Shown one piece after another: positions 4,219 through 62,069 of a stretch of 64,000 bases of DNA; within the stretch, counting starts at the first letter, position 1, and each line of letters starts with the position of its first letter. Source of the stretch: Candidatus Pacearchaeota archaeon (lineage in GTDB: Archaea > Nanobdellota > Nanobdellia > Pacearchaeales > GW2011-AR1); NCBI GenBank assembly GCA_023139205.1, contig JAGLOA010000003.1:1779-65778 (forward strand). Reading direction: 5' to 3'. A model generated the notes under the pieces. That model was not told where the DNA came from. It ran no database searches and saw only the letters and a list, made by a program, of their open reading frames with translations. The position numbers and the translations under genes were made by a program.

Positions 4219-4379
4219 GCCCCTGTAGTCTAGAGGCCAAGGATGCCACCCTCTCAAATCAGATTAAGAGAAAGAGGTGATTTAGTCTCGGTGAGAGAAA
4301 AAGTCTATGCATCTCAATGCAGCCTTTTCTCTGTATTTGGAGAACGGTGGTGACCCGAGTTCAAATCTCGGCAGGGGCG
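4219..4379 (+). tRNA. intron-containing tRNA, most likely tRNA-Glu (anticodon CTC), with an approximately 88-nt intron after position 37
   Basis: Perfect acceptor GCCCCTG/CAGGGGC and T arm CCGAG-TTCAAAT-CTCGG. Anticodon stem CCACC(4246-4250) pairs with GGTGG(4346-4350) only after removing about 4257-4344; anticodon loop is CTCTCAA. Confidence 0.7.
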
Positions 4380-30861: not shown

Positions 30862-30994
30862 TTAATTCTTAGCAGACAACATCTTTTTAAATCAAAAGTT
30901 ATTTACTGAATTACGGCTCCGTAGCTTCCCAAGGAGGGATGATCTGCTTTGCAGACCTCAGCCTTTTAAGTTACTTCGCAGTCGCCCCAAAAAT

Positions 30995-31069
30995 GGCTCC
31001 GTAGCTCAGCTTGGTCAGAGCACCAGACTCTTAATCTGGGTGTCGAGGGTTCAAATCCCTTCGGGGCCA
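30995..31069 (+). tRNA. tRNA-Lys (anticodon CTT)
   Basis: Acceptor GGCTCCG/CGGGGCC, anticodon stem CCAGA/TCTGG with loop CTCTTAA, T arm GAGGG-TTCAAAT-CCCTT, discriminator A. Confidence 0.85.
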
Positions 31070-31139
31070 TTTCTAATTTTGGTAAAATGGTAAGAAAATT
31101 ATTAGTAAAGTTTAAAGGGATTAAATTATTCTATTATTT

Positions 31140-31658
31140 ATGAAGAAAAGAAATCCTAAAAGCGAAGGAGAAGAATTAATCGGAGAGTTTTTTACAGAGA
31201 ACGACATCAAATTTGAAGAAGAAAAAGAGATACTTAATCTTAAAGGAGATAAATTTCAAAAAAGAGTGGCGGATTTTTATCTACCTAAATACAAAGTTTA
31301 TGTAGAATTCTTTGGCCAATGGAATGTTAGTGATTTCCATAAAAATAGATATAAAAATAAAAAGTATGTCTATAAAGAAAATAATGTTTCTTGTATCTAT
31401 CTCTATCCAGATAATTTGGGAATACTCAATTTCATTTTTAAAAGGAGATTAAAAGATGTTTTAAGAAGTCATAAAAACAGAAAAAAAGAATTGTATAAAT
31501 TCTATTTTGACAACTTTTTAGAAAAATCTGGGATATCAATCTTGATAATATTCATATTAATTTTTGCTGTTGGTAATTTTTGGGCGTATGTTGGTTCAGG
31601 AGTTTTATTCTTAGGGACAGTGTATGAATTTTTTATTAAAGAAATTTTAAAAAATTAA
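31140..31658 (+). CDS. hypothetical protein with a C-terminal TM
   Basis: 172-aa ORF. Confidence 0.35.
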   Translation: MKKRNPKSEGEELIGEFFTENDIKFEEEKEILNLKGDKFQKRVADFYLPKYKVYVEFFGQWNVSDFHKNRYKNKKYVYKENNVSCIYLYPDNLGILNFIFKRRLKDVLRSHKNRKKELYKFYFDNFLEKSGISILIIFILIFAVGNFWAYVGSGVLFLGTVYEFFIKEILKN

Positions 31659-31910
31659 AAAAACACCCAGAGCCACCCCCCTTCCCAACCTTTTCAAATT
31701 CCTAGCAAGAATTGCTCTTTGCTCAATTTTTCTAGTCACCAAAATTCTCTTCTTTCCTTTTGAAGTTGGATTTTTTATTGTCTGCCCAGCTTTTGCATTT
31801 ATAATCACATCAAGAAGTCTTAAAGGAATTTTCTCTTCTTTAGGAATTTCCAAATCATAATGAAGTTTTCCAAGTCTGTGGATTGCTCTTTGAATCCATT
31901 TCTTTACCAT
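31647..31910 (-). CDS. small basic protein (hypothetical; possibly a ribosomal or RNA-binding protein)
   Basis: 87 aa, K/R-rich. Confidence 0.3.
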   Translation of the reverse strand: MVKKWIQRAIHRLGKLHYDLEIPKEEKIPLRLLDVIINAKAGQTIKNPTSKGKKRILVTRKIEQRAILARNLKRLGRGVALGVFLIF

Positions 31911-31939
31911 AACACAAAATAGATATTAGAATATATAAA

Positions 31940-32443
31940 TTATTTTTTTCTGGATGGGGATTGAATTTTTCCCCTAATAGTTTTTATGTTCTTTTGCCAA
32001 TCTTCCTTAGACATAATGTGCTTTGGTTCTTTATTGGAAAGAACATCCAAAGGAGAATACTTTTCATTCTCAGCTCTTAAAAAAAAGTGAAAGTGAATAT
32101 GGGGCATATGTTGGTTTGCTGATTCACCATTATTATTAATAAGATTAAACCCATCAAATTCTCCGTTGTCAATAAATTCCATTGATATTTTTTTTATCAT
32201 ATCTCTAATCTCTAGAACTTCTTCATCATTAAGATCTCCTATAAAATCAACATGACGATTAGTTATAATCATGAGGTGTCCAAAACTTAGTGGACTACGT
32301 GGGTAAATCATTAAAGCATACTTACCCTTAAGAATAAGTTGCTGATCTAATTCTTCTTTTTCACAAAACGAACATTTTCTATTTTCCATATTTTCTCCGG
32401 ATAATTTCCAAAATGAATTTGGAACCACGTTCCCCTTTGTCAT
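31940..32443 (-). CDS. HIT-family hydrolase
   Basis: Histidine triad HMPHIHFHF. Confidence 0.8.
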   Translation of the reverse strand: MTKGNVVPNSFWKLSGENMENRKCSFCEKEELDQQLILKGKYALMIYPRSPLSFGHLMIITNRHVDFIGDLNDEEVLEIRDMIKKISMEFIDNGEFDGFNLINNNGESANQHMPHIHFHFFLRAENEKYSPLDVLSNKEPKHIMSKEDWQKNIKTIRGKIQSPSRKK

Positions 32444-32563
32444 TAATATAATAATCTTCTCCAGATAATTTTCTAATACACCAACCTTTTCAAATTCCTA
32501 ACAATTTTACGCAATGCTAACTACTATAAAACCAGTCTTATTCAGGGCGATGATAAATTAGAA

Positions 32564-32851
32564 TCATCTAATTAGTCTTTGTATATTCTCGATAGCATCT
32601 GCAACTTCTCTACCTTTCTTGGTAAGTTGTATAATTTTTATTCGCCCCTTTTTTTCAAATACAACTAACTTCAAGATTTCTAAGGTTTGCAAAATCTTCA
32701 CTGCATGGCTGTAAGTACAATCTACTTCCTTAGCCAAAAGACTACCATACCTCATCCTTGTATTCTTTTTCAGAGAAACCAACATAAGAGCCGGCTTTCT
32801 TCTAAAAAAGACATCAAAATTGTCTTTCATTTGAAAACGTTCATCATCCAA
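32564..32851 (-). CDS. winged-helix transcriptional regulator
   Basis: wHTH pattern in a 95-aa protein. Confidence 0.45.
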   Translation of the reverse strand: MDDERFQMKDNFDVFFRRKPALMLVSLKKNTRMRYGSLLAKEVDCTYSHAVKILQTLEILKLVVFEKKGRIKIIQLTKKGREVADAIENIQRLIR

Positions 32852-33033: not shown

Positions 33034-33645
33034 ATGAAAAAGAAATCAAAAATTTTAGCAATTGGAGATCTTCACGGAGACACAGGTCTGGTAAAAAAAT
33101 TAGCTAAAAAAGCAAAAGATGAAAATGTGGATTTAGTCATATTAACAGGGGACCTGACATTCGCAGAACAATCTACAAAAAATCTAATTGGTCCGTTTAT
33201 AAAAGAAAAAAAACAAGTTCTGTTAATTCCAGGAAACCATGAATCTGTAGCAACAATAGATTTTCTAGCAGAAATGTATCCAAACACAAAAAACATTCAT
33301 GGATATTCTTTCAAAAAAGGAGGCATAGGAATTTTCGGGGCAGGAGGAGCAAACATGGGGATAAACACTGTGAGAGATTCAGAAATTTTTGATTTATTAA
33401 AAAAAGGTCATGAAAAAATTAAAGATTTAAAGAAAAAAATAATGGTAACCCACATGCATCCTAAAGGAAGTAAAGCAGAATTCTCAGGATTTGAAGGAAG
33501 CAGAGCAATAAAAAAAGCAATAAAAGAATTTCACCCAGACATTGCAATTTGCTCGCACATTCACGAAGCTTCAGGAATAGAAGAACAAATGGGGAAAACA
33601 AAAGTAATTAATGTCAGCAGAAAAGAAAAGATTTTTGAGATCTAA
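33034..33645 (+). CDS. metallophosphoesterase (calcineurin-like)
   Basis: GDLHGD, GDLT, GNHE, HMHP motifs. Confidence 0.75.
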   Translation: MKKKSKILAIGDLHGDTGLVKKLAKKAKDENVDLVILTGDLTFAEQSTKNLIGPFIKEKKQVLLIPGNHESVATIDFLAEMYPNTKNIHGYSFKKGGIGIFGAGGANMGINTVRDSEIFDLLKKGHEKIKDLKKKIMVTHMHPKGSKAEFSGFEGSRAIKKAIKEFHPDIAICSHIHEASGIEEQMGKTKVINVSRKEKIFEI

Positions 33646-33711
33646 AATTGGAATAAAAAAAGTACATCAAAAAGGAAGTTCATTTGAAGTATTTCTTCTC
33701 GGGAAAAAGCT

Positions 33712-34107
33712 TTATTCTTCAGAAATTTTTTCTGTTCCACAGTAAATTTCTTCAACATTAAGAATTATTCCTGATTTTGGAGATATTACCAGACTTGATC
33801 TTTTATCTTCAATCCACTCAACAGTATCCTTAAATATCTTATCATCTCTATGAAATTCAGTGGTGCCTTTAATTTGATAAGATTTTTTATTTTCTTTATC
33901 TAATACAACAAAAGAGATTCTAGGATTTTCAAGTAAGTTTTCTAAGGTTTTAGAAAATTTATTATTTGCAATTAAAATTTGTTTATCATTATACACTTTA
34001 AGAAATTTCAGATAGATAATGTTTGGAATACCCTCTTTTGTTGAAGTTGACAAGATATGCAATTCTTGCTTATTAATTATTTCTTGTATGTATTTTGGAA
34101 TTTTCAT
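33712..34107 (-). CDS. PNPOx-like FMN-binding split-barrel protein
   Basis: Pattern of a pyridoxamine-5'-phosphate-oxidase-like fold; this is weak. Confidence 0.4.
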   Translation of the reverse strand: MKIPKYIQEIINKQELHILSTSTKEGIPNIIYLKFLKVYNDKQILIANNKFSKTLENLLENPRISFVVLDKENKKSYQIKGTTEFHRDDKIFKDTVEWIEDKRSSLVISPKSGIILNVEEIYCGTEKISEE

Positions 34108-34289
34108 AATAAAATAAAAGATTAAGTTACTTATTTAAAACTTTTGCTTAAATTAAATTGCTAAAGCCTTTTTCTCGATTTCATATAACAACTTTTAATC
34201 AAACTCTTCATTCAAAACATCTAAATTTTCTGAGATTAATCTAAAAATTTATAAAAGAACCTTAATCTTAATTTAACAAGGTAAATAAC

Positions 34290-34811
34290 ATGAGTCTATT
34301 GAAAAAATTATTCGAAAAGAATCCAAAAATTGATTTCTCCCAATCAATCTTTTTTGTTAGACAATTTAGACAGAAGAATTATGACAGAGAAATTGATGAA
34401 GGAATGTCATCTGGAATGAAAAGGTATGCAACATTGGATGTGACAAAGCTCTCTAAAAAACAAGCTAGACAAGTTATTGGAGAATTAATAGAAGAAGTAC
34501 AAGATTTTAGTTTATGTAAACTTGTTCAATTAGCAGGTTTTACTAAAAAAGATAAACGTTATTTAATCTTAAGTGGAGAATCTCATATATTCTATGAGAA
34601 ATCTACAAAGGATGTAATTTTAAACAGGATGAAAAGTACTACAAAAGAATTACCAGTTGAATATCTAAAAGCACATGTAACGCCACTCATTCAAGGAGAA
34701 TTGTATAAACCAACTAATTTAGGTCCATACGGAAGTACTGGAAATCCTTGTTTAGGAATTTCACAACATCCTGATGCACAAAAACTAAGAGAAAAAGGGA
34801 TAATAAAATAA
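34290..34811 (+). CDS. hypothetical protein on the repeat-flanked insert
   Basis: 173-aa ORF. Confidence 0.35.
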   Translation: MSLLKKLFEKNPKIDFSQSIFFVRQFRQKNYDREIDEGMSSGMKRYATLDVTKLSKKQARQVIGELIEEVQDFSLCKLVQLAGFTKKDKRYLILSGESHIFYEKSTKDVILNRMKSTTKELPVEYLKAHVTPLIQGELYKPTNLGPYGSTGNPCLGISQHPDAQKLREKGIIK

Positions 34812-35158
34812 TTTACACCAGTCCATTATATTTTTCTTCTATTTATCTTCATTTTAACAAAACCCCAATTCTAAATCAGGCATAATAAATTTTATCAAAT
34901 TTAGTCCAGAAAATAATTAATGTCAGCAGAAAAGAAAAGATTTTTGAGATCTAATACAAAAATTTTGGATTCATAATACCCTTAGCTTTTATATTAAACT
35001 TTTTTATCAACTCTTGACTAACCCCTTTCTTAGAAAGGTACTTTGATATTTTCTCAAGAGAATTCACTTCTTCTCTAATCGGTCCACTTCCTTTACCTGA
35101 AGTAAATCTAACTTCCAAAAAAGTTGAATTTCTTAGGAGATAATTAAACACACAAAAA

Positions 35159-35872
35159 CTATTTTGATTTAGGTCCAATTTCTTCTAATCTTTTTTTATT
35201 CTTAATATATCTCAATGCAATTTTTTCAAGACCTTTTTCAGAATGAATGTCTTTTATTCCATCAAATAATAATTTTGCCCCTTCTAAAACAGGATACAAA
35301 TTTGGGTTATTTTTTACATAATTTGGGATTACTTTTTGAGGAGATATTTCTGTATCTTGTATTAATTGATGTATTCTTTGAATAAAAAAGCCCATCTGAC
35401 TTTCCCTTTCTTCAGGAGTTTTTGAAGGCATATAATGTGAGATAAATTCATGAGATTGATATGCTGGGAAAAAATGCATCCCTCCAAAATTATCATTTGG
35501 TGCACCATAAGGGCTTCTAATATCTGTTCTTAACCCAATAACAAATTTTCCCATTAATTTTGCGTAAGAACTTTCAACAACAACACCTTCATCAAGAGGT
35601 TCATCAAAATTCGCTAATACAACATCACTTTTCGGGATAAAAACCCCCATGTCAAGAAAATAAATTACATTTTGAACTGCAGAACTAATTTGGTCTTGCT
35701 GAAGCTTCCCAGAAAGGGCATTTGTTAAATTTCCAAATTCAAATCCATCTCTTTGCGGGAAATTTGTTTTATAACCAAATCTTTCTAAACCTTCAACTAA
35801 TTGAGAATTAAAATGAGTCTCTCTCCCATTGAATAATGCTGCTGCAGGATAAATTATTATTCTGTCTTTCAT
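35159..35872 (-). CDS. nucleoside 2-deoxyribosyltransferase-like protein
   Basis: DEGVVVESSYAKLMGKFVIG resembles the NDT/YtoQ active-site region. Confidence 0.5.
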   Translation of the reverse strand: MKDRIIIYPAAALFNGRETHFNSQLVEGLERFGYKTNFPQRDGFEFGNLTNALSGKLQQDQISSAVQNVIYFLDMGVFIPKSDVVLANFDEPLDEGVVVESSYAKLMGKFVIGLRTDIRSPYGAPNDNFGGMHFFPAYQSHEFISHYMPSKTPEERESQMGFFIQRIHQLIQDTEISPQKVIPNYVKNNPNLYPVLEGAKLLFDGIKDIHSEKGLEKIALRYIKNKKRLEEIGPKSK

Positions 35873-36036
35873 TTTATTCAGAAAATTATGTTTTATTATA
35901 AATTTACTTGTGTTTGTGTGCTATAATTTTGGAGAAGCAAAAAAATTAATTTTTTATTTAATTTAACAACTTTTAATCAAACTTCTTTCTTAAACTATTC
36001 AAAAAATTATAAAAACCCTTCTTCTTCTCAATAATC

Positions 36037-38451
36037 ATGGCAAAAAAACCAAAAAAATTCAGAGAAGAAAAAATAGCTGAAAATTATTTTCCAGTTGATA
36101 CAAGTGATTTAAAATATACAACTGAAAAACAAGTAAAAGAATTTACCCCAAATCCAGAAGAAATCTTAAAAAAATCCACAGAAAAAAAAGTCTTAAATTC
36201 TCAACCTAAAGAAGAAATAACAAAAGGGGCAGTTGAAAAAGTTTACAAAAAACCAAGCAGAAGTTCTTTAGAAAAAGTAGAAAAAAGAACTTACAAAAAA
36301 AGAAAATCAAGAAAAACAAATAAAATAGAATATTCTCCCCCAAAGATTAAATTGAAAAAATCAGGTTATGAATTAATAATCACAGAAAAACCTCAGGCTG
36401 CATTAAAAATAGCTAATGCTCTTGGAAAAGCTGTCCAAAAAACAAATGCCAAAGTTCCATATTATGAGGTTGACAGAAATAAAGAAAAAATAATTGTCGC
36501 TTGTGCAGTAGGGCATTTATTTACATTAAAACAAAACACACCCAGTTCAGTATTCCCAACTTTTGACATAAGCTGGATTCCAAATTATCTTGCAAGAAAA
36601 AAAGATTTCACAAAAAGATATTATGATACTTTATTAAAATTAGCAAAAGGTGCTGGAAGTTTAACAGTAGCAACAGATTTTGATGTTGAAGGAGAAGTTA
36701 TTGGATTAAATGTTGTGAGATTTATCTGTAATCAAAAAGATGCAAACAGAATGAAATTTTCAACTTTAACAGAAAAAGAACTAAATAAAGCATATGAAAA
36801 TAAATTAAAAAAGATTGTATGGGGACAGGCAATTGCAGGAGAAACACGGCATTATTTAGATTGGTTTTACGGAATAAACTTATCAAAAGCTTTAATGAAT
36901 GCAATAAAAACAACAGGGAAATTCAGAATAATGTCTATTGGAAGAGTGCAGGGTCCAGCATTAAATATGATTGTAAAAAAAGAAAGAGAAATCCAAAAAT
37001 TTGAATCTGTTCCTTACTGGCAAATCTTCATAACAGTAAAAAATTCTCATATTCTAGAATTAAAGCATAATAAAGACATCTTAGGCCCTGAAAGGGTCAT
37101 GAACGGAATTGATAAGTTAGAAAAATTTGAAAATCTAGACGGAAAAACCGCTCAGGCAAAAACAAAAAAAACAGAGCAAATTTTACCTCCTCATCCTCCA
37201 TTTAATTTAACTACTCTTCAAATAGAAGCATACAAATTCCACGGAATAACTCCTTCAAAAACATTGAGAGCAGCACAATCACTTTATCTCGCAGGATTAA
37301 TCTCATATCCAAGAACTTCTTCTCAAAAATTACCAAAAGAAATAAACTACAAAGAAATTTTAGATAAATTAAAAATAAGATATAAAGTCAGCAAATTAAT
37401 AACTAAAAAAGAACCAATTGAAGGGAAAAAATCAGATCCTGCACATCCTTCAATTTATCCTACAGGAAACAAACAAATATTATCTGGAGACGAAGAAAAA
37501 ATCTATAATTTAGTTGTGAAAAGGTTTCTTTCTCTTTTTTGCGATGATGCAATTATTGATAAAAAAACAATTACTGCAACAATTGATAATTTAATATTTA
37601 GTACAAGAGGTTCTGCAGTAAGAAAAAAAGCATGGATGGAAATCTATCCAAGTAAATTAAAAGAAAATCAAATTCCAGATTTAGAAGGAGAAGTAAAAAT
37701 TATAAAAACAAAAATAGAAGAAAAAGAAACCCAACCCCCTAAAAGATATTCTCCAGCTTCTATACTTTCTGAACTTGAAAAAAGAAATCTTGGAACAAAA
37801 GCAACAAGGTCCTCAATATTAGAAACATTATATGATAGAGGGTACATAAGAGACCAAAGTGTAAAAGCAACCCCTCTAGGAATGGCTTTAATTGAAAGTT
37901 TAGAAAAACATTCTCCAATAATTATTGATGAATCATTAACAAGAAGTTTTGAGGCTTCAATGGATTCTATTAAAGAAGCTAAAAAAGATTTCGAGAAAAA
38001 AGAAGAAAAAATAATTTCAAAGGCAAAAAAAGCAATAACAGATATTGCGAAAGACTTTAAAAAAAATGAAAAAGAAATTGGGAAAGAACTTCTAAAAGCA
38101 AATGTAGAATTTAGAGAACAGCAAAAAATAGAGAATAAATTAATACAATGTCCTGTTTGTAAAAAAGGAAACTTAGCGATAACTTACTCTAAAAAAACAA
38201 GGAGATTTTTTATTGCATGTGATGCTTATCCAAATTGTAAAACAACTTTTTCTCTTCCTCCAAACGGGCAGATTAAAAAAACAGAAAAAATTTGTGAAGA
38301 ATGTAATTATCCGATGTTAATGAGATTAATGAAAGGCAGAAGACCTTGGATTTTTTGTTGGAATCCAAAATGCCCTACAAACGCAGAATGGGCGAACAAG
38401 TCTGCGAAATATAATCCCGAAGGTAAATCAGAAAAATCTGAGCAGGCTTGA
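36037..38451 (+). CDS. topA: DNA topoisomerase I (type IA) with an N-terminal K-rich extension and C-terminal zinc ribbons
   Basis: Toprim ELIITEKP..DFDVEGE, catalytic region SYPRTSS, C-terminal C4 ribbons CPVC..C..C and CEEC..C..C. Confidence 0.85.
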   Translation: MAKKPKKFREEKIAENYFPVDTSDLKYTTEKQVKEFTPNPEEILKKSTEKKVLNSQPKEEITKGAVEKVYKKPSRSSLEKVEKRTYKKRKSRKTNKIEYSPPKIKLKKSGYELIITEKPQAALKIANALGKAVQKTNAKVPYYEVDRNKEKIIVACAVGHLFTLKQNTPSSVFPTFDISWIPNYLARKKDFTKRYYDTLLKLAKGAGSLTVATDFDVEGEVIGLNVVRFICNQKDANRMKFSTLTEKELNKAYENKLKKIVWGQAIAGETRHYLDWFYGINLSKALMNAIKTTGKFRIMSIGRVQGPALNMIVKKEREIQKFESVPYWQIFITVKNSHILELKHNKDILGPERVMNGIDKLEKFENLDGKTAQAKTKKTEQILPPHPPFNLTTLQIEAYKFHGITPSKTLRAAQSLYLAGLISYPRTSSQKLPKEINYKEILDKLKIRYKVSKLITKKEPIEGKKSDPAHPSIYPTGNKQILSGDEEKIYNLVVKRFLSLFCDDAIIDKKTITATIDNLIFSTRGSAVRKKAWMEIYPSKLKENQIPDLEGEVKIIKTKIEEKETQPPKRYSPASILSELEKRNLGTKATRSSILETLYDRGYIRDQSVKATPLGMALIESLEKHSPIIIDESLTRSFEASMDSIKEAKKDFEKKEEKIISKAKKAITDIAKDFKKNEKEIGKELLKANVEFREQQKIENKLIQCPVCKKGNLAITYSKKTRRFFIACDAYPNCKTTFSLPPNGQIKKTEKICEECNYPMLMRLMKGRRPWIFCWNPKCPTNAEWANKSAKYNPEGKSEKSEQA

Positions 38452-38487
38452 GAGTAAAAAGAGGGAAGAAAAATCTGATTTAAAAAT

Positions 38488-39111
38488 TCACTTTCTTTTT
38501 CTTTTAATTCTCACATGCGGACCATCTCTTCTTCTAAATTTTAAATTCTTTCCTAAAAACAAAAGCATAAAAGTTCCTATTAAAGAAAGCACCCCACTAA
38601 CTACAAAAAGAGGAGAAAAACCAAAACTATCTACAACAAAACCAGCTATAAAACTAGCACCAGCCAGACCAAATCCAACTAATGAAATTTCAATCCCCCA
38701 TTCAAAATTTTCATGACAATGATCAAGATGTCTTGAAAAAAACCCATACCAGGGAGTAAATGCAAAAGCGCCAGCTAAACCAATTAAAAACTGAATCCCA
38801 TAAACATGAATTGGCAGTCTGGCAAACAAATAAAGAAAATAAGCCAGACTAAAAATAAAAAACCCTATCACCATTGAATAAAAATCATCAAGCTCACCTT
38901 TTTTCTTATCTAAAAAATAAGCAATAGGAACACGGAAAGTTGACTTCGTTAACCAAAGAATCGCCATTGCAATTCCAACAACTTTCGCATTTCCCCCTTC
39001 AATTGACTGAACTAAAAAAATAGCAAAAACCGGATTAATAAATCCCATAGCAGTATTAAATAATAAATCAGCTCCAATTAAATTTCTAATCACCTTATTT
39101 ACATTAACCAT
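38488..39111 (-). CDS. MFS-type transporter, half-size (6 TM), possibly truncated
   Basis: Hydrophobicity pattern only. Confidence 0.4.
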   Translation of the reverse strand: MVNVNKVIRNLIGADLLFNTAMGFINPVFAIFLVQSIEGGNAKVVGIAMAILWLTKSTFRVPIAYFLDKKKGELDDFYSMVIGFFIFSLAYFLYLFARLPIHVYGIQFLIGLAGAFAFTPWYGFFSRHLDHCHENFEWGIEISLVGFGLAGASFIAGFVVDSFGFSPLFVVSGVLSLIGTFMLLFLGKNLKFRRRDGPHVRIKRKRK

Positions 39112-55465: not shown

Positions 55466-55573
55466 TAAGGATTCTATAAAGTTTGATTAAAAGTTGTTAT
55501 ATCTAATTTAGAATTCTAGAGAAAAGAATGAAATCAAAAGCTTTATATACTACTACATAGTTACAATTATAAA

Positions 55574-59532: not shown

Positions 59533-60342
59533 TTAAATATTTTTTTCACAATATTGATTTAAATAACAATCATTACATTTAGGATTTATGGGTTTGCACC
59601 ATTTTCTTCCAATTTCCCAACAAGAAAAATCAAATATTCCTGGATATTCTGGATTTAATTCTTTAGCACTATAAATTAAAATTTCGTTTGTTGACTTCTT
59701 AGGAATAAAACCTATTCTCTCAAAAACTTTTTTTACTTGCATATCTGGAGAAATATCAATTCCATTATAATCGCTCATTGAAATTTTAAAACTTCTTGCT
59801 AAAATATTTGCACTCATAGTTGCTATTTTAATACCAACCCCACGAAACTCTAAAAATCTTCTAACTAAAAGATTACTACTTAGATTCCCTTTCCAGATAT
59901 TTGAAGCATCATCATTATATTTTTCATGTATCTTTTGGATGGCTAAATAAAAATTTATAGCCATTTGTTCATTAAAACGATGCAATTTTTTTTCTTGAAA
60001 AATTCTTTTACAATTTTCTTCACTTAATAAAAGAAGTTTCTGAAATTCAAAAGTTCCGATTTCTTTTGAAAATAAATAAGGAATAACCCATGCTTTTTCT
60101 GCTTTAATTTGTCTATCCATAACACAAGCAAGAACATAAGCATGAGGATTTTTTTCAAGATCATTCAATAAAATATCTGCTTCTTTATTTCCAGAAAATT
60201 CTATAAATTTTTTAGGAGCATTCATTAATTCCTCGCCTCTTTTTAATAAAATTTCTCTTATTTTTTCTTTATCTGCTTCAAGATTTTTAGGTTTAATCTT
60301 TGGCAAAATAATTTTTCCTTCTTTATCAAATTGCAAACTCAT
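59533..60342 (-). CDS. HhH-GPD-like DNA glycosylase with a C-terminal Fe-S loop
   Basis: HhH-like RGVGIKIATMSANIL and C-x6-C-x2-C-x5-C (CKPINPKCNDCYLNQYC). Confidence 0.5.
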   Translation of the reverse strand: MSLQFDKEGKIILPKIKPKNLEADKEKIREILLKRGEELMNAPKKFIEFSGNKEADILLNDLEKNPHAYVLACVMDRQIKAEKAWVIPYLFSKEIGTFEFQKLLLLSEENCKRIFQEKKLHRFNEQMAINFYLAIQKIHEKYNDDASNIWKGNLSSNLLVRRFLEFRGVGIKIATMSANILARSFKISMSDYNGIDISPDMQVKKVFERIGFIPKKSTNEILIYSAKELNPEYPGIFDFSCWEIGRKWCKPINPKCNDCYLNQYCEKNI

Positions 60343-60343
60343 T

Positions 60344-60574
60344 TTATAATCCTTTTTTTAATCCTTTTTTTAATCCTTTTTTTAAACCAGAACTTTTTAA
60401 TCCTTCCTTTAATCCGTCTTCCAACCCAAAATCAATTTTCTTAAACAAAATCTCTTGCTTTTTAATGTTTTTTGCACTAAATTGTTTTGTAATTTTCTCA
60501 CTAGACTCTGGGATAAAAGGCCAAAGTAATTCAGCAATTTTCAAAATACTTTCCTTCGTTGGGCTTACCCACAA
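60344..60574 (-). pseudogene. metG: truncated methionyl-tRNA synthetase remnant (C-terminal anticodon-binding end plus a (K/G)GLK repeat tail), probably cut by the adjacent IS insertion
   Basis: 76-aa ORF with ILKIAELLWPFIPESSEKI like the MetRS anticodon-domain end. No catalytic domain lies upstream; an IS starts about 30 bp away. Confidence 0.35.
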
Positions 60575-60733: not shown

Positions 60734-61930
60734 TTAGGTTTTTTTAGTCTTTCTCGTAGATGCTAACTTTTCTTTAAGTTCAGCTTTTCGGTTAATATAC
60801 TCTTCCATACATTCTTTAAAATCAACATTAATTTTTCTTTCAAATATTTCAGCAATAAGACGGCAAATATTGTTGCAAATAAATTTCATCAGTAGTTCAT
60901 TTGTTTGACTAACAAAATTTTTACAACGTAAGAACTCACCAAACTTACGCTTGTTTATAGAGAAAGCTGCTTCAACTTGAGGTCTTTGTCTATACTGATA
61001 ATAAAATTCCTCTTTATGATTTTTAAAATAATCAAAAGCAATTTTCCATATATCTGGAGATTTTTCTTGAGGATTTGCATTTTTCTTAAACGGAATTATT
61101 GGAATTGCTCCTAATTTTTCAATTATCTGAAGTGTTCTATAGGAGCTATAAGCTTTATCTCCAGAAATCATTCTTGGTTCTGAGTTATAAAACAATTGCC
61201 CTAAGAGTTCAGGAACTTGTTTATCGTCAGAATAGTTTCCAGGCGTAATAACGCAAGAATAAACAGCATGGGTAACAGTTCCAACAGCTATATGTGCTTT
61301 AAGATAATTTCTTTTTAGGTTATGTAGTTCTTTTCCATCTACTCCTTTTTTGAATCTGACCCTCATCCATCTTTCATATTGATAACTTCCAAATCCTGAA
61401 GAGTCCATTGCAATCATATCACTATCAATAAATTTTAATGGTATTGCAGTTATGTGTAATATTCTTAAAAGTAAATCTTTAGTTCCCTCACAATTTAGAA
61501 AATCATTAAGAGTGTTCACGCCAGGCGACTTAAAAATAAACCCCAAATTTTCAAATAATTTTAAGTCAGAGTTTAAAACTCTTCCAGATGTATTTGTATA
61601 AAGTTTTAACCCTAAAGAAAAAATTAAATCTGAGAGTTTAGCTTTTGGTCTTCCTCCAGATGATTCTGTTTCTCCTTCATCAAAAATTTCTGCTAATTCA
61701 GAAAGAAGTATCCAAAACATTCTTTTTTCATTTGTTAAAGCTAAATGAACAAGACGGTGATTTGTGGATTTATGTGTAGATAAACATGTCTGAACAACTT
61801 CAGGTTTTTCTGTTTTGAAAGATGCTTCTCTTTTTTCTCTTTTTGCTATTTCATCAGAAAGTTTGTATTTCTTTACATATTTTCCATCGCTTTCTACTAC
61901 AATTTTTTCTCCTCTATATATTTTTGCCAT
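60734..61930 (-). CDS. DDE transposase (IS4/IS5 family, DDE_Tnp_1-like)
   Basis: DSSGF ... SGDKAYSS ... YRQRPQVEAAFSINKRKFG (D, D, E/K-R signature). Confidence 0.8.
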   Translation of the reverse strand: MAKIYRGEKIVVESDGKYVKKYKLSDEIAKREKREASFKTEKPEVVQTCLSTHKSTNHRLVHLALTNEKRMFWILLSELAEIFDEGETESSGGRPKAKLSDLIFSLGLKLYTNTSGRVLNSDLKLFENLGFIFKSPGVNTLNDFLNCEGTKDLLLRILHITAIPLKFIDSDMIAMDSSGFGSYQYERWMRVRFKKGVDGKELHNLKRNYLKAHIAVGTVTHAVYSCVITPGNYSDDKQVPELLGQLFYNSEPRMISGDKAYSSYRTLQIIEKLGAIPIIPFKKNANPQEKSPDIWKIAFDYFKNHKEEFYYQYRQRPQVEAAFSINKRKFGEFLRCKNFVSQTNELLMKFICNNICRLIAEIFERKINVDFKECMEEYINRKAELKEKLASTRKTKKT

Positions 61931-61931
61931 T

Positions 61932-62069
61932 TTATTTTTCCTCCCTTGTTTCTAAAAGACGATTGATTATTTCGTCGTAGCTTTCTCTTTTGCAAAGTTT
62001 TAACTTTACAAGCTTAGCTACAGTTATTTTATTCATCCATATCATTGTTTTGTGTTTTGGTAATGTCAT
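61932..62069 (-). CDS. small ORF upstream of the transposase (possible accessory/regulatory protein)
   Basis: 45 aa, MTLPKHKTMIWMNKITVAKLVKLKLCKRESYDEIINRLLETREEK, directly abutting the transposase start. Confidence 0.3.
   Translation of the reverse strand: MTLPKHKTMIWMNKITVAKLVKLKLCKRESYDEIINRLLETREEK

Follow-up and report, generated by a model that had tools for sequence, protein, structure and literature searches.

The 64,000-nucleotide stretch of Candidatus Pacearchaeota DNA analysed here (the window; contig JAGLOA010000003.1 of assembly GCA_023139205.1) contains two identical copies of a 41-bp sequence, TAATTAATGTCAGCAGAAAAGAAAAGATTTTTGAGATCTAA. The first copy forms the 3´ end of a gene for a calcineurin-type metallophosphoesterase (MPE), and the second lies 1.3 kb downstream, behind two accessory genes. 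The second copy is probably, if by no means certainly, a former end of the MPE gene that was displaced by homology-anchored and illegitimate recombination with the same locus of another strain. This account rests on the repeat itself, on the hotspot for accessory genes in which it is found, on the recurrence of displaced MPE ends in relatives, and on the lack of any recognisable recombinase in the genes scanned.

A perfect repeat of the MPE gene end

The two copies occupy positions 33605-33645 and 34914-34954, both on the plus strand and without a mismatch, as an earlier note on this DNA had claimed. The note had also proposed a search for further copies; the window has no third copy even when up to three mismatches are allowed, and 100 dinucleotide-preserving shuffles yielded no match to the 41-mer. 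With one mismatch, the repeat lengthens leftward by 4 nt to 45 nt at 98% identity (33601-33645 and 34910-34954), and this difference, at position -42 (G/A), is the sole one between copy 1 and copy 2 within the window. Copy 1 comprises 2 nt of a Val codon, 12 codons and the TAA stop codon of MPE, and the description of the repeat as the last 13 codons plus stop was thus essentially right. To the left of copy 2, no MPE-like sequence was found apart from AAA. These 3 nt precede the 41-mer at the putative joint and are uninformative in a genome of 29% G+C.

The MPE gene (33034-33645, plus strand; 203 aa; Pfam Metallophos, E = 1.3e-17) is a core gene with 4779 homologues. Its close orthologues are 76-87% identical, nearly all of 203 aa, and their C-terminus is nearly invariant (VINVSRKEKIFEI). 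The cargo between the repeats (33646-34913, 1268 bp) has no homologue at the same position in 160 related loci. It holds two genes on opposite strands and no recombinase, again as previously described. The first (33712-34107, minus strand) encodes a PNPOx-like FMN-binding protein of 131 aa (Pfam PNPOx_N, E = 5.9e-18; NCBIfam PPOX-class matches fall below the cut-off). The second (34290-34811, plus strand) encodes an uncharacterised protein of 173 aa, h173, without a Pfam, NCBIfam or PADLOC match. The two genes diverge from an intergenic region at 34108-34289, and h173 is followed by a spacer of 102 nt (34812-34913). G+C content and GC3 of the cargo are inside the range of the genome, which fits a related donor. 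On the far side of copy 2 is a small open reading frame (ORF), h66 (34951-35151, minus strand), known from the ORF list and gene calls and without a Pfam match, the stop codon of which overlaps copy 2 by 4 nt.

To follow the repeat beyond a single assembly, 21 contigs of the same species were gathered by exact-protein look-ups with MPE, PNPOx, h173, h66 and the nucleoside 2-deoxyribosyltransferase-like protein (NDT) encoded beyond h66; contigs and loci are referred to by L numbers. The MPE-41mer-PNPOx junction was recovered in five independent contigs or assemblies (L001-L005), and the spacer-41mer-h66 junction in L001, L009, L015, L016 and L185. The junctions were assembled from several samples in ENA, NCBI and Logan data, and the pairing is always identical. 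Logan contigs built at k=31 (L007, L008, L010, L017) end 30 nt into the repeat, as expected of a true 41-bp repeat. An assembly artefact is effectively excluded as the source of the repeat.

The same contigs were searched for an empty site (…ACAAAAG-41mer-TACAAAAAT…) and for an excised circle (…CCAGAAAA-41mer-AATTGGAAT…). Neither junction is present in any of the 21, a weak test confined to assembled contigs, and the excision that the earlier note had envisaged thus found no support there.

An insertion hotspot between MPE and TopA

The locus was compared with 160 loci of relatives, half of them (80) taken from species-representative genomes and the other 80 from metagenomes. Gene order is conserved (CDC48, signal peptidase, TFIIS, variable region, winged helix-turn-helix protein (wHTH), MPE, gap, topoisomerase TopA, variable region, NreA), and TopA lies downstream of MPE in nearly all related loci. 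The size of the gap between the two ranges from about 23 bp to 4.5 kb. It is below 100 bp in 19 of 74 genome loci (about a quarter; typically ~40 bp), and in these compact loci the TATA box of TopA follows ~10 nt after the MPE stop codon. The remaining gaps (0.1-4.5 kb) are filled with unrelated genes, including those for radical SAM enzymes, AAA_28 ATPases, methyltransferases, a serpin, DHODH, D-Ala-D-Ala ligase, peptidases and a protein of 1308 aa. ORFs of at least 180 aa fall into 37 families, mostly singletons, and ~60% of the loci carry cargo. Because the gap genes differ and are unrelated, in comparison with the compact relatives, the MPE-TopA interval in Pacearchaeota is a hotspot where accessory genes accumulate. 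MPE is its left anchor and TopA its conserved right border.

Compared with the compact state, the window has an insertion that takes up the entire 2.4 kb from 33645 to about 35986, and the 41-bp repeats enclose the left half only. The right half holds h66 and, outside the repeats, NDT (35159-35872, minus strand; 237 aa; Pfam Nuc_deoxyrib_tr, E = 2.5e-8). All 160 related loci lack homologues of the four gap genes (by tblastn for PNPOx and h173). With h66 and NDT as lineage-specific as the cargo, the repeats do not bracket the insertion as a whole. The proposed search for an empty site in relatives had a divided outcome: the compact arrangement (MPE, ~40 bp, TopA) exists at the species level, and the form with MPE, the 41-mer and h66 in direct succession was absent from the contigs gathered.

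TopA itself is encoded at 36037-38451 (plus strand; Pfam Toprim / Topoisom_bac / Zn_ribbon_Top1). Its core promoter and leader (35986-36036, plus strand) are identical at 44 of 51 positions to the last 13 nt of MPE plus the 38-nt spacer in the compact locus L107. The first 13 nt of this segment (35986-35998) were considered as a third MPE relic; the match of 9 of 13 nt is too short to claim. Behind TopA, a similarity to the Nre tail at 38472-38498 (23 of 27 nt; score 34 against a control maximum of 32) was likewise discounted. A tRNA or other RNA gene as the target of insertion was rejected, as no tRNA or other Rfam RNA was found in the MPE-TopA gap of the window or of 14 related loci.

Displaced gene ends in relatives

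A displaced second end of the MPE gene is present in 10 of ~150 loci (about 7%), the window and nine others. In the alignment test, the last 60 nt of MPE were compared with the 5 kb downstream in 153 loci and with 465 controls, for which the maximum score was 37. Seven of the 153 exceeded all controls: L078 (116), L103 (95), the window (85), L174 (69), L143 (46), L149 (43) and L137 (41). At the protein level, the motif [KR][IV][FI]E[IV] followed by a stop codon was matched 10 times in 106.6 kb of forward-strand gap sequence, compared to none in 1.88 Mb of control sequence. The relics are 17-87 nt long, lie 31-1450 nt behind MPE, and every one of them reaches the stop codon. Their state spans perfect copies (the window; L078, 87 nt) to diverged or truncated ones, and relics of such graded decay appear to form the age series that would be expected if gene ends are displaced from time to time.

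Individual loci reveal more of how the relics may have arisen. The perfect 87-nt repeat in L078 surrounds a HEPN/nucleotidyltransferase gene pair, and the resident gene ends in TGA, the relic in TAA. The spacing of the repeats is 1510 bp in this locus and 1309 bp in the window. As a separate observation, the nucleotidyltransferase of the L078 pair matches candidate-defence models in PADLOC; none of the genes in the window has a PADLOC defence match. L143 and L137 have a 24-nt relic in common, placed after an insert of 35 nt, and in L137 more cargo follows directly after the stop codon of the relic.

L103 is the closest relative, with an MPE that is 86% identical. Ahead of its relic stands a copy of the locus' own TopA promoter and first 12 codons (78 nt, 82% identity), which scores 77 against a control maximum of 39. 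The result is a chimeric mini-ORF, MPKKPKKFKGEEIGKTKVINVSRKAKIFEI* (2052-2183), in which the TopA promoter and first codons are fused to the MPE end, and which could be expressed from the duplicated promoter. The joint falls in a purine-rich stretch common to the TopA codons for KEEKI and the MPE codons for IEE(K/D)I. The structure as a whole, MPE-cargo1-[TopA5´::MPE3´]-cargo2-TopA, amounts to two versions of the locus arranged head to tail through a single illegitimate joint. L174 has diverged homologues of one gene behind its copy 1 and copy 2, with the relic standing between them. Finally, the relics in L071, L163, L180 and L103 carry synonymous differences to the resident gene end and a different stop codon, which implies that they derive from another allele.

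The test was extended to other genes at the locus. NreA, a DNA-repair gene that borders the variable gap between TopA and Nre, has relics of 36-46 nt in 3 of 58 loci (L072, L022, L045), and L043 and L045 contain displaced fragments of its C-terminus (55-63 aa). No relics were found for TFIIS (0/88), wHTH (0/131), signal peptidase (0/83) or CDC48 (0/34). The phenomenon is thus not specific to MPE and, in view of the zeros for TFIIS and wHTH, not uniform. The interval between the latter two is a second variable region, which in the window (30994-32851) contains a tRNA-Lys gene, two unknown ORFs and a HIT-family gene. It often carries a tRNA in relatives, yet it is free of 3´-end relics in the loci tested.

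Two G+C-rich stretches in otherwise A+T-rich gaps, L078 4262-4335 and L051 2240-2545, adjoin MPE-end-like sequences, and the latter includes two copies of '...TTTGAGAGATAA'. Neither has an Rfam match at E <= 0.5. These stretches could be structured RNAs or older relics.

A model for the displacement

In the sequence of events that we infer for the window, a near-identical strain would have been the source of DNA from this locus, which brought an MPE end, the PNPOx and h173 genes and ~100 nt more and recombined with the resident chromosome. One joint would have been homologous, within the conserved MPE gene. The other would have been illegitimate, joining the right end of the spacer (…CCAGAAAA) to the resident MPE gene at the AAA microhomology, 41-45 nt ahead of the resident stop codon. 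This joint is also present in L009. The incoming MPE end would then have taken over as the functional end of the gene (copy 1), and the last 41 nt of the resident gene would have been shifted 1.3 kb downstream as the non-coding copy 2, still joined to an older islet with h66 and NDT and to TopA. A process of this kind is known as homology-facilitated illegitimate recombination (HFIR) and may equivalently be regarded as an unequal exchange between two versions of the locus. The perfect identity of the repeats points to a recent event within the population. The common mode of turnover at the hotspot would be double-homologous replacement through MPE and TopA, which leaves no relic; that most of the turnover is without a relic is as expected if this mode predominates.

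In the relatives, the chimera in L103, the stacked alleles in L174 and the relics from other alleles point to recombination between homologous loci of different genomes rather than to exchange between two att sites. Judged from these sequences, the signatures suggest homology-anchored illegitimate recombination as a better fit than an att site. The earlier note had proposed a site-specific insertion that regenerates the gene end. Of this, the insertion at the 3´ end of MPE stands, with an intact copy 1 and a displaced copy 2; the site-specific part is less in keeping with what is seen in L103, L174, L071, L163 and L180.

Several observations weigh against the model. The window is without a direct locus-against-locus signature, as the sequence to the left of copy 2 is not recognisable as TopA or MPE. 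That copy 2 is preceded by a duplicate TopA promoter or 5´ end, as in L103, was considered and dismissed, the similarity of the spacer being not significant. The microhomology at the joint is limited to 3 nt, and its surroundings are A-rich. No contig contains the donor arrangement or the pre-insertion one (MPE-41mer-h66). The right flanks of the two copies are equally similar to the ancestral sequence behind the stop codon (5.3 of 14 for copy 2, 5.1 of 14 for copy 1), and an argument based on a more ancestral flank of copy 2 was dropped for this reason. HFIR is known experimentally from bacteria only. Two final points would also fit a site-specific mechanism. All ten relics contain at least the last 17 nt of MPE, which is also what a fixed att core would give. 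Further, relics are found at MPE and NreA and not at TFIIS or wHTH, which also border a variable region, and this could reflect target specificity.

Alternative explanations

The alternative that survives best is a tyrosine or serine integrase that is encoded elsewhere or has been lost. The 41-mer would then be the attL and attR of a small non-autonomous cassette similar to a cis-mobilisable element (CIME), and the MPE end the attB of an additive island that grows by successive gain of cassettes. Perfect direct repeats that restore the 3´ end of a gene, and a hotspot with different cassettes in each lineage, are what such an enzyme would produce. In L137 more cargo begins immediately after the relic stop codon, and additive islands with partial tRNA repeats are well known (PMC4898812). 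The enzyme itself was not encountered: no recombinase is encoded among the 29 window ORFs scanned, including those between the repeats, no integrase or transposase among 30 representative cargo ORF families from about 94 cargo-bearing loci of relatives, and no IntI-type integrase or Phage_integrase match was obtained in the neighbourhood. The length of the repeat is another difficulty, as the blocks of identity vary between 17 and 87 nt, and neither the TopA5´-MPE3´ chimera in L103 nor the stacked alleles in L174 are products of att x att exchange. The last 14 codons of MPE are under no extra constraint at synonymous sites (0.93 compared to 0.91-0.94 elsewhere), and the idea that the MPE end is constrained, whether by a role in integration (att site) or by one upstream of the TopA promoter, was therefore rejected. 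The contigs contain no excised or empty form. Moreover, IMG/VR holds neither the 41-mer core nor relatives of h173 or PNPOx, and a viral or plasmid origin of the cargo was rejected on this basis. The suggestion in the earlier note that the integrase is lost or acts in trans is therefore unsupported within the ORFs and cargo families searched, and we regard the trans-acting version as unlikely, while retaining it as the most serious competitor.

The sole mobile-element gene among the window ORFs scanned is a DDE_Tnp_1 transposase of IS4/IS5 type (60734-61951, minus strand; E = 4e-20), 26 kb from the repeat. It adjoins a 12-nt tandem repeat (TTTTTTAATCC-like, 4 copies) at 60342-60415.

A more far-reaching form of site specificity would be a hitherto unrecognised gene-capture system of Pacearchaeota. 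Certain core genes (MPE, NreA) would receive small promoter-carrying units directly after their stop codon, and the last ~20 nt of the gene would serve as attachment site for a recombinase that is encoded elsewhere or belongs to an unknown family, and arrays of displaced ends would be left behind. We consider the existence of such a system doubtful, and less plausible than an integrase of a known type.

Integration of the Campbell type seems about as improbable. Here, a small circle excised from the MPE-TopA islet of another strain and carrying the MPE end would integrate by a single crossover within 41-45 bp of identity, and the repeats would represent the duplicated homology. A single crossover with a circle yields exactly the geometry observed; the TopA-5´::MPE-3´ junction in L103 is that expected of a circle excised between the MPE end and the TopA start, and the spacings in the window and L078 (1309 and 1510 bp) are both small and similar. 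On the other hand, 41 bp is very short for homologous recombination of the RadA type and the circle junction is present in no contig. With the present data, this scenario is indistinguishable from the displacement model, with which it shares the logic of one illegitimate and one homologous event and no dedicated enzyme.

An assembly artefact, either a chimeric join of strain variants or a repeat that was collapsed or expanded during metagenome assembly, is very improbable. The population is heterogeneous: in L009 the gene to the left of h173 is a different one and the right side diverges, a number of contigs stop near h173, and two NCBI contigs from metagenome-assembled genomes (MAGs) share an overlap of exactly 141 nt within h173, the mark of a branch of the MEGAHIT assembly at k=141. 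However, both junctions were assembled independently with the same pairing, as described above, and 41 bp is far below the read length and k=141. The left flank of copy 2, the h173 spacer, is the same under either phasing of the strains, and the bracketed structure thus holds. Least probable of all, and likewise effectively excluded, is the integron-like cassette capture raised in the earlier note, with the 41-mer as an attC/attI-type site: h173 does move as a gene-sized block, small promoter-bearing or single-gene units and an array-like order of cassettes behind a fixed point would be in keeping with it, but the 41-mer and its surroundings have no attC-like fold or imperfect palindrome (DNA folding versus shuffles, z = +1.5, +0.4 and +0.9), an IntI-type integrase was not found, the cargo consists of two divergent genes rather than one promoterless ORF, and the relics copy the end of the upstream gene, not a cassette-borne site.

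Apparent mobility of h173 and other features of the locus

There are 23 homologues of h173. They sit in unrelated contexts, and those few with a source name are from Pacearchaeota or Woesearchaeota. Together with the 42 nt ahead of it, the h173 gene (window 34248-34813; -42 to +2) is 79% identical at the nucleotide level to a copy in L099-L101 (~4958-5524 in L099), contigs of another MAG from the same study, where it sits behind a Na+/H+ exchanger gene. From these comparisons, h173 appears to be a gene-sized unit common to unrelated contexts. Its AlphaFold model, which is of good confidence (pLDDT 83.5), has its best PDB fold matches, which are weak, among eIF4E cap-binding proteins; an eIF4E-like function was not adopted, as the match (TM 0.46, E = 3e-3) is below a convincing level.

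L009 (ERZ23498485 scaffold_432223, 1-1162, corresponding to window 34283-35095) represents a co-occurring strain variant. It has a gene for a HAD-like hydrolase directly to the left of h173, identity to the window begins 7 nt before the ATG, and the spacer-41mer junction is followed by a longer version of h66, within which divergence starts. The h66 of the window is probably the C-terminal remnant of this longer gene, as judged from the alignment. A homologue search with the HAD fragment (a query that is approximate in its first 9 residues) returned no longer contigs of the variant.

A 19-nt motif, TAACAACTTTTAATCAAAC, has three exact copies in the window (34186-34204, 35964-35982 and, on the minus strand, 55481-55499) compared to 0.21 expected. 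The copies lie within similar intergenic stretches of 35-95 nt in the divergent promoter region of the cargo, upstream of TopA and after a NAC-like gene, respectively, and the motif is restricted to contigs of the same species. It may be a dispersed regulatory or repeat element. In an alignment, the cargo intergenic region and the NDT-TopA intergenic region have weak similarity, the score of which was equalled or beaten by 1 of 500 shuffles. Elsewhere in the window, Rfam reports a fourth tRNA at 4219-4379 (plus strand; 161 nt, 44.6 bits) that was missed by ARAGORN and is probably an intron-containing archaeal tRNA.

Significance and relation to known systems

The repeat itself suggests a neutral recombination scar with two uncharacterised accessory genes at a conserved insertion hotspot, and its direct biological consequence is small. 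The wider interest lies in the source of such genes. DPANN archaea have tiny genomes with few recognisable mobile elements, and their gain of accessory genes is poorly understood. A hotspot with scars of different ages in ~150 relatives would be most simply explained by recombination with the DNA of related strains. If this is true, these organisms owe their flexible genome at least in part to ordinary recombination rather than to integrases or transposons. The relics may serve as a marker of the process, since the last codons and stop codon of a core gene that recur in the gap downstream can be counted across metagenome-assembled genomes. In the literature naming DPANN archaea, as searched, no description of such displaced gene ends was found, and the event is of a known kind that is apparently new for this group.

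In outward appearance, the locus resembles a CIME, a cis-mobilisable, att-flanked and integrase-less element, as known from ICESt1/CIME in Streptococcus thermophilus. In both, a short cargo segment that encodes no recombinase is flanked by direct copies of the 3´ end of a protein-coding gene. CIMEs, however, derive from, and are mobilised by, related integrative and conjugative elements with a known integrase and a fixed att core, and neither a parent element nor a fixed core is evident here.

Additive flexible genomic islands and tycheposon-like cargo islands are comparable as well. The former are found at tRNA/tmRNA genes with partial tRNA repeats (López-Pérez & Rodriguez-Valera, PMC4898812). 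A conserved hotspot, strain-specific cassettes and partial repeats of the target 3´ end that mark the additions are features of these islands and of the MPE-TopA interval alike. They differ in that site-specific integrases are usually encoded in or beside the islands and the targets are mostly tRNA genes, whereas the target here is the end of a protein-coding gene and the 30 cargo families include no integrase.

A further parallel is the displacement of C-terminal or 3´ ends in Rhs, contact-dependent inhibition (CDI) and type VI secretion system (T6SS) effector-immunity loci. The model favoured here has been proposed for T6SS effector-immunity arrays in V. cholerae and for Rhs C-terminal displacement (Kirchberger et al. 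2017, PMC5361080; Jackson et al. 2009). In those loci, too, a new 3´ end and downstream genes arrive behind the conserved 5´ part, the old 3´ end is pushed downstream as an orphan, and repeated events give rise to arrays, with no integrase involved and HFIR as the proposed mechanism. The displaced ends there are variable toxin domains with immunity genes, and selection acts on the new toxin. In the archaeal case, the displaced piece is an invariant and non-functional gene end of 17-87 nt, and the payload consists of unrelated accessory genes.

HFIR is known from Acinetobacter, Streptococcus pneumoniae, Pseudomonas stutzeri and E. coli (de Vries & Wackernagel 2002; Prudhomme et al. 2002; Meier & Wackernagel 2003, all cited in PMC5361080; see also PMC3240628). 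It differs from the present case in being an experimental finding in bacteria, compared to one deduced from sequence in DPANN archaea, and in leading more usually to a deletion; a joint upstream of the resident stop codon, as proposed here, would instead leave a duplication. In other respects the proposed event corresponds to HFIR. Homology to a conserved gene, here MPE, anchors one end of the incoming DNA; the other end is joined at a few bases of microhomology, which here may be AAA; and foreign genes are gained without a dedicated recombinase. Like HFIR, which is rare in comparison with double-homologous replacement, the displacement of gene ends has marked about 7% of the loci, against about 60% that carry cargo.

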